A stretch of 64,000 nt of DNA, taken from a virus. The number at the start of each line of letters is the position of its first letter. Position 1 is the first letter of the stretch. The notes below the pieces were generated by a model. It searched no databases. It had not been told where the DNA came from and saw only the letters and a program-made list of their open reading frames with translations. The position numbers and the translations under genes are program-made. Positions 1,803-53,593 of this stretch are shown here, piece after piece. The DNA is taken from positions 1-64,000 of the IMG/VR virus record IMGVR_UViG_3300022751_000016. One strand, given 5' to 3'.

Positions 1803-3086
1803 TTAATTATATACTTCTATTCTTATAGAATTGTTAAATAGTTTATCATCTGAATCTGTAAATGGTACAGTACCGTTATCCTGAGTTTTTACAACAATTA
1901 TATCGTCACTATTTCTGAATATTGAATAACTGCCAGTTGGACTAGATGGTGTTATTGATAAATGAGTTTTATCTACGGGAAAAGCTCCTACTAATGTCCC
2001 CCAATACATGCCTGTAGTAATTCTAGTCCAAACAATATTTCCAATAGAATTTTCTAAAGTATTAACTATTGGATTATCTGTGTCTGTTTGATTTAAGGTT
2101 GCTGAATATACTGTATAAGGTCTTAGTTGGTCTGTTGTTGCTAAAGTGTAACTTCCTGCTAATTTTGTAGGGTTTAAGTTATACACAGCTATTCCTGTAG
2201 CTACCCTATCTGTCATTATAAACTCATTCACCGCTCCAGAACTATTGCCAAATATTGTTACAATTCCCCCTAAATTATTAATTCCCGCAGAAATATTTTG
2301 GTCTAACTGATTTATAACTAATCTAGTTGGAGTTGTTTGTAATACTTGTGTAGAGTCTCCAGACAATAAATTCATTACTTTATTAACAGAAGTATTATTT
2401 ACCCCTAATACACTATCTAGACCTTGAGTACTTCCCCCAACTACTATATCCCCTGTACCAACAATAGACTCACCATTAATTGTTTTGAAGTCAGAGGTTG
2501 TAGCTAAGGTATAATCCTCTCCTTCTTGTTTAGCTGGAAAAAATAAATTTGTATTGGCTATAGGGTCTTTTATTAGAACATTGGTAAGGTTACCACTGCT
2601 TATATCTAGTTTTTCAAAAACTAAACCTTGTGACACATTCAGTTTTATTGTGTGACTAAATTCTTCCGATACTACTGCCATAGCTAAAATAGGTTCTCCA
2701 TTATTATCCTTACTAGCTATTAATCCACCTTGAGATGTAGTTCCATCTATTATAGCCATCCCCCCTTTATCAATAACACCCTGTAAATCCTGAGAACCTC
2801 CTAAAGAATTAATCACGTAAGGTTGTTCTTCTGTACCTATTCCATTGATTTCAACATTTTCTCCTGCTTCTATTTTTGTTGCGGAAATTTCACTGATTTG
2901 TTGGTCTTTAAAGATAAGAGATGAAGTTATAGCTGCATTTATTTCAGTTTGGGTTGAGCCCGCACTTATGTCGAGATATGTAATAGCATTTGGAGTTTGG
3001 ATACAGTCTGTAGAAATATAATTATTTCCACATCCTTCTTCTACTTGCTCTATTGCTGTTCCTGTATAACAATTTTTTATATCCAT
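1803..3086 (-). CDS. Fibre-like virion protein
   Basis: N-terminal domain shared with 3086..4324; C-terminal domain resembles that of 495..1793. Confidence 0.6.
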   Translation of the reverse strand: MDIKNCYTGTAIEQVEEGCGNNYISTDCIQTPNAITYLDISAGSTQTEINAAITSSLIFKDQQISEISATKIEAGENVEINGIGTEEQPYVINSLGGSQDLQGVIDKGGMAIIDGTTSQGGLIASKDNNGEPILAMAVVSEEFSHTIKLNVSQGLVFEKLDISSGNLTNVLIKDPIANTNLFFPAKQEGEDYTLATTSDFKTINGESIVGTGDIVVGGSTQGLDSVLGVNNTSVNKVMNLLSGDSTQVLQTTPTRLVINQLDQNISAGINNLGGIVTIFGNSSGAVNEFIMTDRVATGIAVYNLNPTKLAGSYTLATTDQLRPYTVYSATLNQTDTDNPIVNTLENSIGNIVWTRITTGMYWGTLVGAFPVDKTHLSITPSSPTGSYSIFRNSDDIIVVKTQDNGTVPFTDSDDKLFNNSIRIEVYN

Positions 3087-4324
3087 TACGTAATTCTTAT
3101 TTTTACCGTTCCGTTTGTATGGTACATTTGTCCAATTAATATCCCTCCTGTAGCAGCATCTACATCATTATTATAATTTTTACTTATAGTTGGTAAATAT
3201 TCTTTTGTTATAATAGCTTTTCCAGTAGAATCCGAAGTAATTAGAGAATTTGTTTGTTTAGGTATCGTTGTTAACCCAGTATCTAGACTTCTAAAAACAA
3301 TTCCACCTACACCATCTGCTAAGATTACATTGTTAGAGAGGGCTGTATTTAATCCTATTACTCCTCCTATCACTGTATTTCCTGAACCTGTTGTGATTCC
3401 TGTATTTAGTCTAGTATTTGGTACTATTAATGTATTATTAGAACCTGTTGTGATTCCTGTATTAAATGCACTTTGTGTTCCTAATAAAATATTGCCTGTT
3501 CCAGTGCTTAAATTACCTCCCGCTTGAAATCCTAATGCGATGTTGCTACCACCTGTTGTATTTTGCTGCATTGCCGCAAAACCTAGTGCTGTATTTCTAC
3601 TAGCTGTTGTTGAAAAATAAGATGCGCCTGTTCCAATAACTGTATTATCAGTACCTGTCGTTGAAGAAGCTAATACAGATTCTCCTACGGCTACATTATT
3701 AGAACCTGTCGTGTTTTTATTCAGTGAATTTCCTCCAAACGCTGAATTACTAGAACCTGTTGTGTTAGATGCTAAAGATTCAGAACCAAAGGCTGAATTA
3801 TAACTTCCTATTGTATTTAACTTTAATACAAATTTTCCTAATCCTGAATTACTAGTTCCTGTGGTATTTACTTCAAGGGCAGAATCTCCTATAGCAGTAT
3901 TATCTGTAATATTGTTATTTCCTTTACCTACTCTAACATCATTAATTAATTTATCAACTCCTCCTAATTCTTGTAAAGGTGTATTATCAACTATACCTGA
4001 TATACTGGAAGATACAGGTAGAAGTATCGAATTAATAATATATGGTTCTTCTTCTGTACCGACTCCTGTAACTATTACATTTTCACCCGCATTGACAATT
4101 GTCTCACTTCCATTTGGTATGGGAATCTCTGAAATTTGCTGGTCTTTAAACATTAACGCTGTAACTATGGCAGAATTTATTTCAGTTTGGGTTGCTGCTG
4201 CGGGGAGTTCTAAATAACTTATTGCGTTTGGAGTTTGGATGCAATTAGTACTAATGTAACTGCCATCGCATTCATTAGGAATCTGAGCTATACTTGTACC
4301 TTTTGTGCAATTCTTTGAATTCAT
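3086..4324 (-). CDS. Fibre/adhesin-like protein with NTTG-x-N-x-A-x-G beta-helix repeats
   Basis: 14-aa repeats of the trimeric autotransporter/YadA-head type. Confidence 0.65.
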   Translation of the reverse strand: MNSKNCTKGTSIAQIPNECDGSYISTNCIQTPNAISYLELPAAATQTEINSAIVTALMFKDQQISEIPIPNGSETIVNAGENVIVTGVGTEEEPYIINSILLPVSSSISGIVDNTPLQELGGVDKLINDVRVGKGNNNITDNTAIGDSALEVNTTGTSNSGLGKFVLKLNTIGSYNSAFGSESLASNTTGSSNSAFGGNSLNKNTTGSNNVAVGESVLASSTTGTDNTVIGTGASYFSTTASRNTALGFAAMQQNTTGGSNIALGFQAGGNLSTGTGNILLGTQSAFNTGITTGSNNTLIVPNTRLNTGITTGSGNTVIGGVIGLNTALSNNVILADGVGGIVFRSLDTGLTTIPKQTNSLITSDSTGKAIITKEYLPTISKNYNNDVDAATGGILIGQMYHTNGTVKIRIT

Positions 4325-28486: not shown

Positions 28487-28537
28487 TTACAGAAAAAGTA
28501 ATTAATTTGGTGGATTGAATTTAAAGTTGTATATTTG
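28487..28537 (+). promoter_or_regulatory. Promoter with upstream phage box driving a non-coding region
   Basis: TTACAGAAAAAGTAATTAATTTG-N20-TATATTTG. Confidence 0.65.
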
Positions 28538-28550
28538 CTTTATAATTATT

Positions 28551-28633
28551 GGAAGTTGCTCCCAAACAACTACTTTAGCGGATGATTATTCCGTATAGGT
28601 GCACGAATGAGAAATCAGAGTATGTTGTCTTCC
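28551..28633 (+). ncRNA. Putative structured small RNA
   Basis: GGAAG/CTTCC, CAAC/GTTG and TACTTT/AGAGTA nested stems plus a CGGA/TCCG hairpin, directly downstream of a promoter. Confidence 0.5.
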
Positions 28634-28868
28634 TTTTACAGTAAATCGTTTTGGACGTTAGATTGGGGTTTCTGAGAACGTTATTCTCTTTGTGAAGCAT
28701 TTAGTCGTTACTTTTAAATTAACTTAAAAAATACATTATGAGAAATGATATAATTTTTTGCTCAGATTACGATGGAATTTAGAAATATATTAAATAATTT
28801 AAGAGTTTATAACTATACTTAAAACTAATAATTATGGGAGGAGATTCCTAAAAATACCTTAAAATAAA

Positions 28869-36286: not shown

Positions 36287-36970
36287 ATGATTAACTCACC
36301 TAAGAAAGAGAACAAGGAAAAAAGAGTATTAAAAACAGAGCCTAAACTTAAGGTAGATTTAAACGAAGAACAAAAAGAGTTTGTAAAATTATTTTATGAA
36401 TTTGATGTTTGTTTTTTACATGGAGATTTTGGTTCTGGTAAATCTTTGGCAGCAGTCCACACAGCATTGTCGGCATTCAGAAAGAAACAGTTTAATAACA
36501 TATGGATTACCAGACCTATGCTAAAAAATTCTCTAGCTGCCCTTCCTGGAACACTTGAAGAAAAAATGTCACCTTATACTTTTCCAATTACACAAAATAT
36601 GGAAGTATGTCAAGGTAAAGAAATGACAGATAAAATGTTAAAAGAAGGTATGGTTAAAATAATGCCTATTGAAGTTGCAAAAGGATGCTCTTTTATTGAC
36701 TCAGTAGTTATAATTGATGAATATGAAGATATGACTTATGCAGATTTTAGAACAATTTTAACTAGATTATCTAAGGGAAGTAAAATGATTTTCTGCGGTT
36801 CAAAAGAGCAAATTGATAAGCAGATAGGTAAAAATAGTTGTATTTATGACACTATGAGACTAGAAAACTCTGGATTAGTAGGCTATAAAACATTAACAGC
36901 AAATCACAGAAATCCTATTTTGACAAATATTATAGATTTTTTAGAAAAAGATTTGCACAACTCAAAATAA
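36287..36970 (+). CDS. phoH: PhoH-family ATPase
   Basis: GDFGSGKS, ITRP, LPGTLEEKM.PY, IIDE, LTRL, HRNP motifs. Confidence 0.9.
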   Translation: MINSPKKENKEKRVLKTEPKLKVDLNEEQKEFVKLFYEFDVCFLHGDFGSGKSLAAVHTALSAFRKKQFNNIWITRPMLKNSLAALPGTLEEKMSPYTFPITQNMEVCQGKEMTDKMLKEGMVKIMPIEVAKGCSFIDSVVIIDEYEDMTYADFRTILTRLSKGSKMIFCGSKEQIDKQIGKNSCIYDTMRLENSGLVGYKTLTANHRNPILTNIIDFLEKDLHNSK

Positions 36971-36983
36971 ATTATTATATTTG
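36952..36983 (+). promoter_or_regulatory. Bacteroidota-type promoter driving the structured RNA region
   Basis: TTTG-N20-TATATTTG. Confidence 0.7.
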
Positions 36984-36986
36984 CAT

Positions 36987-37103
36987 AAGAAAGATAGGTA
37001 AAAACACTTTTCGGCTTTTTGGTAATACGTGTGCTGTATTCTGGTAACAGGATTAAACCTTATAACAACGTGTGATGTGGATGAGTGACCACAAATCTTT
37101 CTT
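36987..37103 (+). ncRNA. Putative multibranch small RNA
   Basis: Closing stem AAGAAAGAT/ATCTTTCTT at the predicted TSS; inner AGGT/ACCT and GTGG/CCAC stems; T-run after. Confidence 0.5.
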
Positions 37104-37130
37104 TTTTAACTTTTTCGCGCAAAAATAACA

Positions 37131-37337
37131 GTCATTTGAACTTAACACTAGGATAATGACAAGCGATTGGACAAAGTTAAGTGTCACGAATTGCCCTGTA
37201 ACAGCTAAATGTTGCCAGTTAGAGTAGGTCTGAGACTATTATGTGAAGCTCTAACATTTTTTATCGGTATCATCCCCTGTGATAGTATCTAAGGGCTAGT
37301 AGGAGTTGCATGTTAATACCGAGTGTGTAATCCTACT
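37131..37337 (+). ncRNA. Putative structured RNA(s) with two H-type pseudoknots
   Basis: GTCATT/AATGAC crossing ACTTAAC/GTTAAGT; GTTAGAGT/GCTCTAAC hairpin; TCGGTAT/ATACCGA crossing AGTAGGA/TCCTACT. Confidence 0.5.
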
Positions 37338-37365
37338 TATTTTTATAAAATGTAATATCAAATAG

Positions 37366-38148
37366 ATGAAAACACAAGGACAAGGTTTTAACTATAAAGT
37401 AAACGGCGAAAATAAAACTAAAGAAGAGATTGATAATATGGACTTAAGTAATATGAATTGTACAGTTGATGGTTTATCTGTTCTATATTCTTTTCCCGAC
37501 CAAAATTATATTAGGCATTTTGTAGAAATTAAGGAGAAAATAAAACTACAAGAACTAAGAGATTATTTGATAACAGATAATATTATTTGTACAGACCTGA
37601 GCACAATATATGGTATAATGTCCGCAGAAACAGAAGATGAGTTAAAAGATATTCTTAAGAAGTTACCAGAGACAAATACGCGGCTAGAAAAAGAGATAAT
37701 CAGAACAAAAACTGAAGAAATTCTAGATGAAGTTGAAAAATACCAACAAGAAGTTAACGGAGGTATTTTAAAAGGAGAAGAGTTTCCATACGATTTTACA
37801 AATTTAAACTTTAATGTAATTACAAGTAGTAATATAGAAGAAAATGAGACAATAGAATATTTCCAAGGAATAAAAGAAACAGAAGGTAAATTAGACTATT
37901 CAGAAATAAATTTCAGGTTATTAGATTTAATGGCTAAAAGATTTATGGATAACAAGGTTAAATATCCTAAAGGTAACTCTAAAAAAGTATTAGATAAAAA
38001 TGAAATTCTTTGGGCGGCATTCAGACACATTAGAAAGATGATTCAACCTATTGAAAATGACCCAGAAACTTATGAAGACCATCTTTCTGCTGTTTTAACT
38101 AACATGAGTATTATTTTAGACCAATTAGATTTGGATAAGTCAAAATAA
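37366..38148 (+). CDS. Protein with C-terminal dATP/dGTP diphosphohydrolase-like domain
   Basis: GKLDYS...KY.KGN...AAFRH...HL.AV..N. Confidence 0.65.
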   Translation: MKTQGQGFNYKVNGENKTKEEIDNMDLSNMNCTVDGLSVLYSFPDQNYIRHFVEIKEKIKLQELRDYLITDNIICTDLSTIYGIMSAETEDELKDILKKLPETNTRLEKEIIRTKTEEILDEVEKYQQEVNGGILKGEEFPYDFTNLNFNVITSSNIEENETIEYFQGIKETEGKLDYSEINFRLLDLMAKRFMDNKVKYPKGNSKKVLDKNEILWAAFRHIRKMIQPIENDPETYEDHLSAVLTNMSIILDQLDLDKSK

Positions 38149-51596: not shown

Positions 51597-53593
51597 ATGT
51601 TAAACATACATTTAAAAATCGAGGCTAAAATAACTTGTTTTATCACATTGGCACAATTATCCGAGTTAACAAATAAAAAACAATCTGAAACATTAAAAAG
51701 TTTATATGTTACATTTAGCAAAGATTGTTTTCTATTACCTTATAAAGTACAAAAGCTATCTAAACGAGCAAGACGAAATTTAATTTAAAAATATATCTTA
51801 TGAAACTACCTAAACAAATAAGGCTTAACTATTGGTGGATTAATAGAAAGCCTATTTTATTACTTTCTTTTGGCTTTTTAGTCTTCTTTTTGGCGGCAAA
51901 TGTGTTACTTAATCTTATTGAATATCTTACTAATCTTTTAAATTAACTTATTATGAAAGCGCAAATAAAACTAATAAACAATAGTGGTTGTAGTCCTATC
52001 GAAGTATTTAATTCTGTAAAGGACTTAAAGACTTATTTAAACGAGTGCCTTTATTATGCCACTGAATTATATTTAAATATTGAATGTAATTACACGGATA
52101 ATTGGGAATATTCTAAAATTACAGACTTAAGAAGCTTATTAAGTGAAGCTAAATTTTATGATAGTGTTTTATGTGTTAATGTAGAATATTAGTAACAACC
52201 TTATAAAAACTAAATTATTATGAACTATCTACAAATGTTATCCGATAAAATAAATTCTTATAAAAGTTATAACCAAGCGGTAAAAACTAGAGTTTTAAAG
52301 CAATTAGAGAATAGAACGGAATTGACTGAACAGCAGTATAAAACTGTTATTAAAAACGTTCCTAAAGTAATGAAAGCAAATAAATTGTTTCTTACTAAGT
52401 ACAATAACGAGTATAAAAAGGTTTTAGGCGTTTCAGTTCATAGATATGCACCTGAATTAAACACTTTACAATACATTAGTGGAACAATTATAAAAGTTCC
52501 ACAACAAACAACGGTCGAGGACGCAATAAAATATTTAATTAATAACGGTAAAATTTAAACAATATGAAAACAATTGATACAACAACATTAACAAGTTTAG
52601 AACGTTCCATTTATGGAACTAACTTAATAAATAAATTAACAATTCAAAACCTTAGAAAAGTTTTACCACAATTAGAAACGTATAAAGGTAAAAAGATATG
52701 TTTGGCAAGTGGTAAGGCTGCAAAAAATTTCACAATAGAATTACTTAGTTACTCAGATAAGGAAGCAGGACAACATTTAAGAACGTTTATTAAATTTGAA
52801 CAATTTGCAAGGACTGAAAAGATAATCTTGTTTCAAGATGTTACGGTAAAAGATAAAAATTATCAGGGTGGCGGTTATGGTGTATCTTATTATCAAAATG
52901 AAATTGATTTAGGTTATTTAATTAACGGTGTACTAACTGAAATTACAACTATGTACGATATAGAACTTTCTTATAAGTTAGGAGTTGAATTTTGCGCAAA
53001 AAAAGTAAAAGAAACGAAAGACAAAATAGAACAGTTAAAAAATGAAGTTTCAAAGTTAGAACATTCTATATATCAATTTAAAGGCAGTTATTAAATTGCA
53101 TATTGCAATATACGATTTGGCGGGATAAAAAACTATAAAAGAAAAGTTTATGAAAACAGATTTAAACGGTTTACAACTAACTGTACTAAAACAGTATAGA
53201 CAACAATCAACTAATTTTAACGAGTCTTTAAATAGATATTATGACTTGTTTAAAGTTCAGTATTCAAATGGAAAAATAGGGTTACTTTGTCAAACAGAAA
53301 TAAATTATTAAATTATGAGAACTTTATATAATTATTCGAATTACGGTAATGATTTAAAATTAACTTATTCTGATGCTCAAAGCGTTGCATTATCGGGAGA
53401 TATGGAAAACAACGTTATTGAATTAATGGAAAAGAAATACGTTAAAAGACAATTAGATTTAATAAACCCCAAACAACTTGCAAAGGAATTAAATGACTAT
53501 GGAGCTTGGGACGATGACGAACTAAAAAACCACAAAGAAAACTTAAAAAGGTGGGTTTGGTTGTCGGGTTGTGATATTGTAGAAAATAAATAA
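51597..53593 (+). other. Early-type small ORFs (51597-51788, 51953-52192, 52220-52558, 52564-53094, 53315-53593)
   Basis: Co-oriented ORFs with A-rich leaders. Confidence 0.5.

Follow-up and report, generated by a model that had tools for sequence, protein, structure and literature searches.

The uncultivated 142-kb phage of IMG/VR record IMGVR_UViG_3300022751_000016 leaves 395 nt between two protein genes (36971-37365) without a single ORF of 60 aa or more, and the question raised by this gap is what, if not protein, it encodes. The record is 142,450 bp long, looks complete and has a G+C content of ~30%; the window analysed here is its first 64 kb (64,000 nucleotides). Structural genes occupy the minus strand as far as ~28 kb, whereas the early genes are on the plus strand. 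Among public runs, the best match for the phage DNA is a leaf-litter metagenome, and no RNA run is listed as containing it.

A preliminary description, made from the sequence, read the gap as one promoter-driven array of four folded RNAs, set apart mostly by T-runs and including two H-type pseudoknots. The ORF-free gap (its longest frames are 44 aa, on the reverse strand, and 27 aa), the T-runs seen on reading the sequence and all four folded units lie where that description had put them. The cassette of structured RNAs behind a promoter is real, but it comprises three RNAs rather than four, and these do not form one co-evolved array: they are independent, separately inherited genes, found alone or reordered elsewhere. 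The gap is accordingly predicted to hold three separate genes for compact pseudoknotted small RNAs, U1, U2/3 and U4, laid out as follows.

36287-36970: PhoH-like gene, 5' neighbour of the gap
36952-36983, plus strand: Bacteroidetes-type promoter, with -33 TTTG at 36952-55, a 20-nt spacer and -7 TATATTTG at 36976-83
36987-37103, plus strand: U1, predicted small RNA of 117 nt, 14 homologues
37104-37128, plus strand: U-run followed by the T-run/GC-core/A-run motif TTTTTCGCGCAAAAA (37111-25), marking the end of the U1 gene
~37125-37260, plus strand: U2/3, predicted small RNA of ~135 nt, homologues in L050, L069 and pT24
37262-37345, plus strand: U4, predicted small RNA of ~84 nt, homologues in L073, L087 and L120 and a variant in L003
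37366-38148: gene with a dATP/dGTP-diphosphohydrolase N-terminal domain (dGTP_diPhyd_N), 3' neighbour of the gap

The L-numbers denote the loci of other phages and contigs that were compared, L001 being Cellulophaga phage Calle and L004 Tenacibaculum phage pT24. In the product of the downstream gene the dGTP_diPhyd_N domain occupies residues 169-255, and the N-terminal half is uncharacterised. A PurZ-type adenylosuccinate synthetase, sought because of this neighbour, is absent from the genome, so that the neighbourhood is not a Z-genome cluster.

Transcription signals and searches against known families

The promoter reported ahead of the array is borne out and is of the Bacteroidetes type, identified by the Bacteroidetes sigma-A consensus (-33 TTTG, -7 TAnnTTTG). 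Its -7 box ends 3 nt ahead of the first RNA stem, and the motif TTG-N18-22-TAnnTTTG is enriched in the genome, with 40 plus-strand copies against 11 in shuffles; a near-identical copy of the promoter lies at 38131-61. The same box precedes U1 in other phages, 3-4 nt away in L071 and L073 and 10 nt away in L067. A sigma-70 promoter scan did no better than shuffles. The units that follow U1 have no promoter of their own and would thus depend on read-through past the U1 U-run.

The motif behind U1, a T-run, a G+C core of 4-7 nt and an A-run, is present in 12 genome copies compared with 0.9 in shuffles. Apart from that at 37111-25, copies in the window lie at 29216-30, 52990-53004, 58972-89, 59303-15 and 62568-83, and six more lie beyond it. 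The motif is kept behind U1 in L003 and L076 and closes the last module in L068, L073, L087 and L088. Since it is near-palindromic, a dimeric protein may recognise it as a DNA site, or else it may be an unusual terminator.

Searches with the models of Rfam 15 gave no match in the window at the gathering score, and even at E<=10 the region 36800-37500 matched no family, tRNA, tmRNA, ribozymes and riboswitches included. ARAGORN likewise found no tRNA or tmRNA in the window, in agreement with the earlier statement that none of the units is either. At 12 homologue loci, Rfam matches at E<=0.1 were confined to tRNA-type models and to reverse-strand 'Plastid-ycf2' matches on the same tRNA genes. Tandem Repeats Finder returned no rows in the gap, where direct repeats reach only 10-11 nt, and no ToxN-family gene was found among the eight neighbouring ORFs scanned. 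A single large RNA (RNase P, tmRNA or a GOLLD-like RNA) was rejected because the modules occur apart. Minimum free energies of folding are unremarkable (z-scores of -1.2, -1.4 and +0.8) and uninformative, since pseudoknots are not modelled; the structural support therefore comes from comparison and not from thermodynamics. Homologues for this comparison were sought in part by 15-mer and 18-mer scans of viral contigs, whose matches were mostly due to chance and were filtered.

Folds of the three modules

Comparison with related phages shows the proposed pairings to be conserved, with strong covariation in U1 and U2/3. The helices of U1 are these.

36987-95/37095-103, plus strand: closing stem P1, 9 bp
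37005-08/37084-87: candidate helix epsilon, letters never vary
37012-15/37033-36: helix alpha
37021-23/37057-59: helix gamma
37025-30/37068-73: helix beta
37039-43/37048-52: P4, capped by a GNRA loop (GUAA or GUGA)
37077-80/37089-92: candidate helix delta, letters never vary

When the sequence was compared by BLAST with cultured phages, only the non-coding U1 segment gave a match, to Cellulophaga phage Calle at 83.5% identity, where the copy is unannotated; the flanking genes found nothing among cultured phages. Further copies, in seven contigs of IMG/VR and six from metagenomes, came from pattern scans and BLAST. An alignment of 14 sequences was tested with crossing helices allowed, against 500 shuffles and against controls in which the partner strand was slid. 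Of the cells in the proposed helices, 95.8% are paired, compared with 27-47% with slid partners, compensatory changes on both sides occur at 13 pairs, and none of the 500 shuffles reaches any of the observed measures. P1 is present in all 14 homologues with differing letters, for example GGAUCUU/AAGAUCU in Calle and AAAUUAAAC/GUUUAAUUU in L068, and frequent G-U pairs fix the plus strand as that of the RNA. Because alpha, beta and gamma each cross the others, the core of U1 is a multiple pseudoknot. Thus the boundaries and the 9-bp closing stem of the first unit (36987-37103) stand as first described, whereas its interior is a pseudoknot rather than a plain multibranch fold. Helices delta and epsilon are invariant candidate pairings.

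Some 70 columns of the 14-sequence alignment are invariant. Conservation of the unpaired nucleotides is very high and includes the invariant blocks AUGUGGAU (37075-82) and AGUGACCACAA (37084-94), a pattern that would fit catalysis or ligand binding by the core no less well than recognition by a protein. A covariance model of the RNA (R1) finds exactly one copy in this phage, in Calle and in each of five further records, and none in the complete 141-kb sister phage or in pT24; U1 is thus dispensable, being missing from a sister phage that is 83% identical. The exact 19-nt core of U1 has no true copy among 185,579 bacterial species genomes. All five matches to the core in bacterial genomes, and 8 of the 15 in metagenomes, are due to chance, the rest of the RNA being missing.

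The second and third units of the preliminary description form a single RNA, U2/3.

37131-36/37155-60: stem S-A, crossing S-B
37141-46/37176-81: stem S-B, extended in this phage to 37137-46/37176-86
37146-53: conserved loop CACUAGGA
37198-203/37210-15: hairpin H
37218-24/37249-55: 7-bp stem of the 3' domain D, with conserved UAGG...GUGAAG
L050:2994-3126, L069:899-1050 and pT24 L004:2938-3062: U2/3 homologues, each exactly between two tRNA genes

The homologue in L050 aligns to 37137-37262 at 82.5% identity and that in pT24 to 37194-37259, and metagenome contigs span 37121-37260 as a single block. BLAST of the L069 copy, and of the L059 scaffold described below, against cultured phages gave nothing beyond Calle. 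Covariation was assessed in four sequences, those of this phage, L050, L069 and pT24. In each of S-A and S-B, strands from the same lineage pair at 24 of 24 positions, compared with only 57-60% when strands are swapped between lineages. The letters of S-A in the four lineages are GUCAUU/AAUGAC, UUUGUC/GGCAAA, GUUAUU/AAUAAC and UAAAUC/GAUUUA, and those of S-B are CUUAAC/GUUAAG, CUUAGC/GCUAAG, ACUAGC/GCUAGU and CUAUAA/UUAUAG; the order of strands, S-A 5', S-B 5', S-A 3', S-B 3', is that of an H-type pseudoknot in all four. The crossing of 37131-36/37155-60 with 37137-46/37176-86 that had been proposed is therefore upheld by covariation, with its extension a feature of this phage. The 3-bp UGA/UCA extension of S-B is not kept in pT24, and as only a 6-7-bp S-B is common to the four lineages, the extension becomes a 3-nt loop 1. 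A loop 1 of 3 nt is the length needed to cross a stem of the size of S-B.

Hairpin H also covaries, as does stem D (28 of 28 paired), so that all four U2/3 helices are fully paired. The hairpin at 37218-55, which had been taken for a separate unit, thus has a real stem but is the 3' domain of U2/3. Besides the loop CACUAGGA, the conserved stretches are CCCU, CCAG and the UAGG/GUGAAG internal loop; readings of this loop as a K-turn or a loop E were judged by eye and the consensus does not fit either. A comparable layout is seen elsewhere in the window, where another Bacteroidetes-type promoter (TTG at 28507, TATATTTG at 28530-37) heads an ORF-free stretch (28507-28710). The second fold of this stretch, at ~28654-28709, repeats the arrangement of unit 3, with a stem, UGGGG, a variable hairpin, GUGAAGC and the stem again, and may be another member of the D-domain motif.

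U4 combines a long hairpin with a helix between its loop and an upstream strand.

37264-70/37316-22: S1, pairing the 5' strand with the loop of hairpin S2
37275-78/37292-95: small hairpin
37298-304/37331-37 and 37306-11/37325-30: long hairpin S2
37338-45: U-run, terminator-like

The letters of S2 differ yet pair in five lineages, the outer stem being AGUAGGA/UCCUACU here, AGCAGGA/UCCUGCU in L073, GCAUCC/GGAUGC in L120, AAGAGAGG/UCUUCUCUU in L087 (the same as L098 and L132) and GGUAAGAG/CUCUUUACC in L003. S1 is conserved as UCGGUAU in the upstream strand and (A)UACCGA in the hairpin loop, and L120, with UCGGUUU and AAACCGA, provides one compensatory change from A-U to U-A. Covariation of S1 in four sequences was equalled in 129 of 500 shuffles and is not significant alone; a 7-nt complement to the loop such as S1 arises by chance in 3% of shuffles of a single sequence. 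The S1 pseudoknot is probably real. For the pseudoknot described earlier as 37264-70/37316-22 crossing 37298-311/37325-37, then, the hairpin is confirmed by covariation, while S1 has conservation and a single compensatory change.

S2 is a 13-bp stem with a 13-nt loop, followed by UAUUUUUAU, and stands 20 nt ahead of the ATG of the downstream gene. With its U-run it looks like the terminator of the cassette; a scan for consensus terminators did not list it because the scan limited loops to 8 nt. In L073, U4 directly follows U1, and the L003 variant heads its cassette. Pattern matches to the fourth unit in L079 and L081 are due to chance and lie inside a coding region.

Modules in tRNA arrays and in the phoH slot

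ARAGORN finds no tRNA gene in the whole 142-kb genome, yet homologues of its small RNAs sit in large tRNA arrays of other Bacteroidota phages. The order is tRNA-Val, U2/3, tRNA-Arg(TCT), U1 in L050 and tRNA-Gln, U2/3, tRNA-Met, U1 in L069; in Calle, U1 begins 2 nt after tRNA-Arg(TCT), and in pT24 the interval from tRNA-Pro to tRNA-Ile(TAT) is taken up by U2/3. The spacing between module and tRNA is only 0-7 nt. In soil, bovine and wastewater metagenomes the modules occur one at a time on the contigs, and in one metagenome contig the T-arm and acceptor 3' end of a tRNA come directly before U1. Contigs of four metagenomes define the module boundaries, with breaks at 37105/37121, 37260/37262 and 37342; U4, like U2/3, is spanned as a single block (37262-37342).

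The slot after phoH is also variable. In relatives whose phoH is 83% identical, it holds only U4 in L087 and an unrelated module in L088, each with the same leader on one side and an identical T-run/CGCG/A-run motif downstream. From their distribution, the modules appear to be three independent, mobile and dispensable RNA genes.

Modules can also be nested. In L059-L063, U1 lies within a larger stem-closed scaffold RNA of ~208 nt (L059:2073-2280, and likewise in L060-L063), closed by AGAUACCU/AGGUAUCU and sharing the AGAGUAG...GUGAAGCU motif of domain D. Here U1 replaces the small apical hairpin of a domain resembling unit 3, a natural domain insertion between modules, and a tRNA-like element stands behind the scaffold. 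Such elements lie right behind modules at L001:2612-2690, L050:3317-3395, L059:2287-2360 and, on the reverse strand, at L120 ~4232-4306. Their acceptor stem and T-arm are well formed, but the D or anticodon arm is unusual or lacking and the loops have CAU or UAU; they are called neither by ARAGORN nor by Rfam (E<=0.1).

Possible roles of the RNAs

The modules are probably stable, trans-acting accessory small RNAs. In this phage they would be made from the host-type promoter at 36952-83, with ends set by the transcription start, the U-runs and the terminator-like hairpin of U4. In phages with tRNA arrays they would be freed by the cuts that RNase P and the 3' tRNA-processing enzymes make at the neighbouring tRNAs. 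That two unrelated routes should lead to the same closing-stem termini is the main argument for free, stable, trans-acting RNAs and against gene leaders. Their occurrence in tRNA arrays and the hot-spot character of the slot suggest, as a leading if speculative guess, that the modules bind a host or phage protein of the tRNA, translation or defence sphere and serve as decoys or modulators, behaving as accessory genes that are exchanged within a variable slot. Protein anti-defence genes show such a pattern of exchange, and an RNA-only version, if true, would be new biology. A more novel reading, that the phoH slot and the tRNA arrays are hot spots for interchangeable RNA-only accessory genes and that at least one module is of a new functional class, either a counter-defence RNA (a decoy for a host nuclease that targets tRNA or senses RNA, or a sponge for an immune signal) or a new self-cleaving ribozyme, is speculative and rather unlikely.

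A role purely in trans has to accommodate the observation that, in phages of the type seen in the window, one and the same gene family always directly follows the cassette (the window itself, L003, L073, L076, L087 and L088), which leaves room for a role of U4 in cis. Since U4 ends in a 13-bp hairpin and a U-run so close to the ATG, the cassette, or at least U4, could be a leader or attenuator that controls read-through into the dGTP_diPhyd_N-domain gene, for example as a terminator tuned by the loop pseudoknot. Such a function is unlikely, however, as an explanation of the modules: in Calle, L050, L069 and pT24, U1 and U2/3 are found between tRNA genes with no downstream ORF, in L120 U4 precedes a tRNA-like element and not a dGTP_diPhyd_N gene, 271 other letters separate U4 from the gene in one metagenome contig, and both the order and the content of the slot vary, the module of L088 being unrelated.

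Small ribozymes are common in phage DNA, and the compact multi-pseudoknot core of U1 comes with ~70 invariant columns, a level of conservation typical of catalytic RNAs. One or more modules, U1 first among them, might therefore belong to a new class of self-cleaving ribozyme, cutting the transcript of the cassette or of the tRNA array into pieces. We regard this as quite unlikely, given that no Rfam ribozyme model matches at E<=10, that the flanking tRNAs in the arrays already supply the cuts and that the alignment names no candidate cleavage site.

The pseudoknotted fold, invariant junction nucleotides and closing stem are also features of riboswitch aptamers, so that one or more modules could act as free aptamers, binding a small molecule such as a nucleotide-derived signal as a sensor or a sponge. 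There is, however, no expression platform and no match to an Rfam aptamer, the modules occur between tRNAs, and the neighbouring genes suggest no ligand because they vary; this reading too is quite unlikely.

The preliminary description had also pointed to type III antitoxins and their phage mimics. ToxI, CptI and TenpI have a role in phage-host conflict, as does pseudo-ToxI, a known phage mimic of ToxI, and the modules resemble all of these in being short pseudoknotted RNAs. A mimic that neutralises a ToxN-type nuclease of the host is nevertheless most improbable. In ToxI, CptI and TenpI a single unit of 34-45 nt is repeated in tandem, and a ToxN-family nuclease is either their neighbour or their target. 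The gap, by contrast, shows no tandem direct repeats, whatever the period, and lacks an adjacent ToxN-type gene; its three modules are mutually unrelated and their homologues lie in tRNA arrays. Finally, a decayed tRNA array or a functionless, structure-free spacer, which might be imagined for a phage without tRNA genes whose relatives carry the modules in tRNA arrays, is hardly tenable in view of the 82-95% identity across phages whose flanks no longer align, the abundant compensatory changes and the lack of tRNA features with ARAGORN and Rfam.

For fifty years it has been known that tRNA regions of phages also encode additional small RNAs; those of the T4 tRNA region are RNA C and RNA D, its stable RNAs of species 1 and 2. 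Both are small, are not tRNAs, lie among the phage tRNA genes on the same transcripts and have an unknown role (PMC3014915). These are the nearest described systems, with GOLLD and ROOL next. Homologues of U1 and U2/3 in Calle, pT24, L050 and L069 similarly abut tRNAs inside clusters, whereas the RNAs of the window stand alone behind a promoter in a phage without tRNAs, the host phylum differs and pseudoknot folds are here shown by covariation; the likeness is one of position. GOLLD and ROOL are phage- or prophage-borne, often beside tRNA genes, and are single RNAs of roughly 500-800 nt, unlike the three independent modules of 84-135 nt described here, which the GOLLD and ROOL models do not match. 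Both are structured non-coding RNAs of unknown function (PMC12286853).

The Y-RNA-like YrlA is similar in its long 5'/3' closing stem, in being phage-borne in some cases and in its association with tRNA, and is a protein-binding scaffold. YrlA carries a tRNA-like domain with T and D arms and sits beside rsr, whereas the modules show no T-loop by eye and no Rfam match, and no Ro gene is present among the eight neighbouring ORFs.

The three families are absent from Rfam 15, a statement that concerns Rfam and not the catalogue of 10,006 viral candidate RNAs (PMC10690425). The novelty lies in uncatalogued families with well-supported pseudoknots that are free-standing in a tRNA-less phage. At the least, they provide three families for RNA catalogues and an account of 'empty' gaps in the genomes of Bacteroidota phages. 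Two carriers are culturable, Cellulophaga phage Calle for U1 and Tenacibaculum phage pT24 for U2/3, and these, together with clean module boundaries and a pair of sister phages that differ in the presence of a module, make the role of the RNAs directly testable.

The tRNA regions of both carriers have features of their own. In the GenBank entry of Calle (MT732432.1, Calle_1), the annotated tRNAs are ~52 nt off the positions given by ARAGORN and Rfam; tRNA-Arg, for example, is annotated at locus 2364-2434 and found at 2416-2487. The pT24 array begins with a tRNA with a CTA anticodon (amber suppressor-type) and includes two 80-nt copies of tRNA-Ile(TAT) with an extended anticodon arm, the positions in question being L004:2187-2261, 2699-2778 and 3066-3145. 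Its long unannotated spacers (e.g. 2262-2698) may hold more RNA modules.
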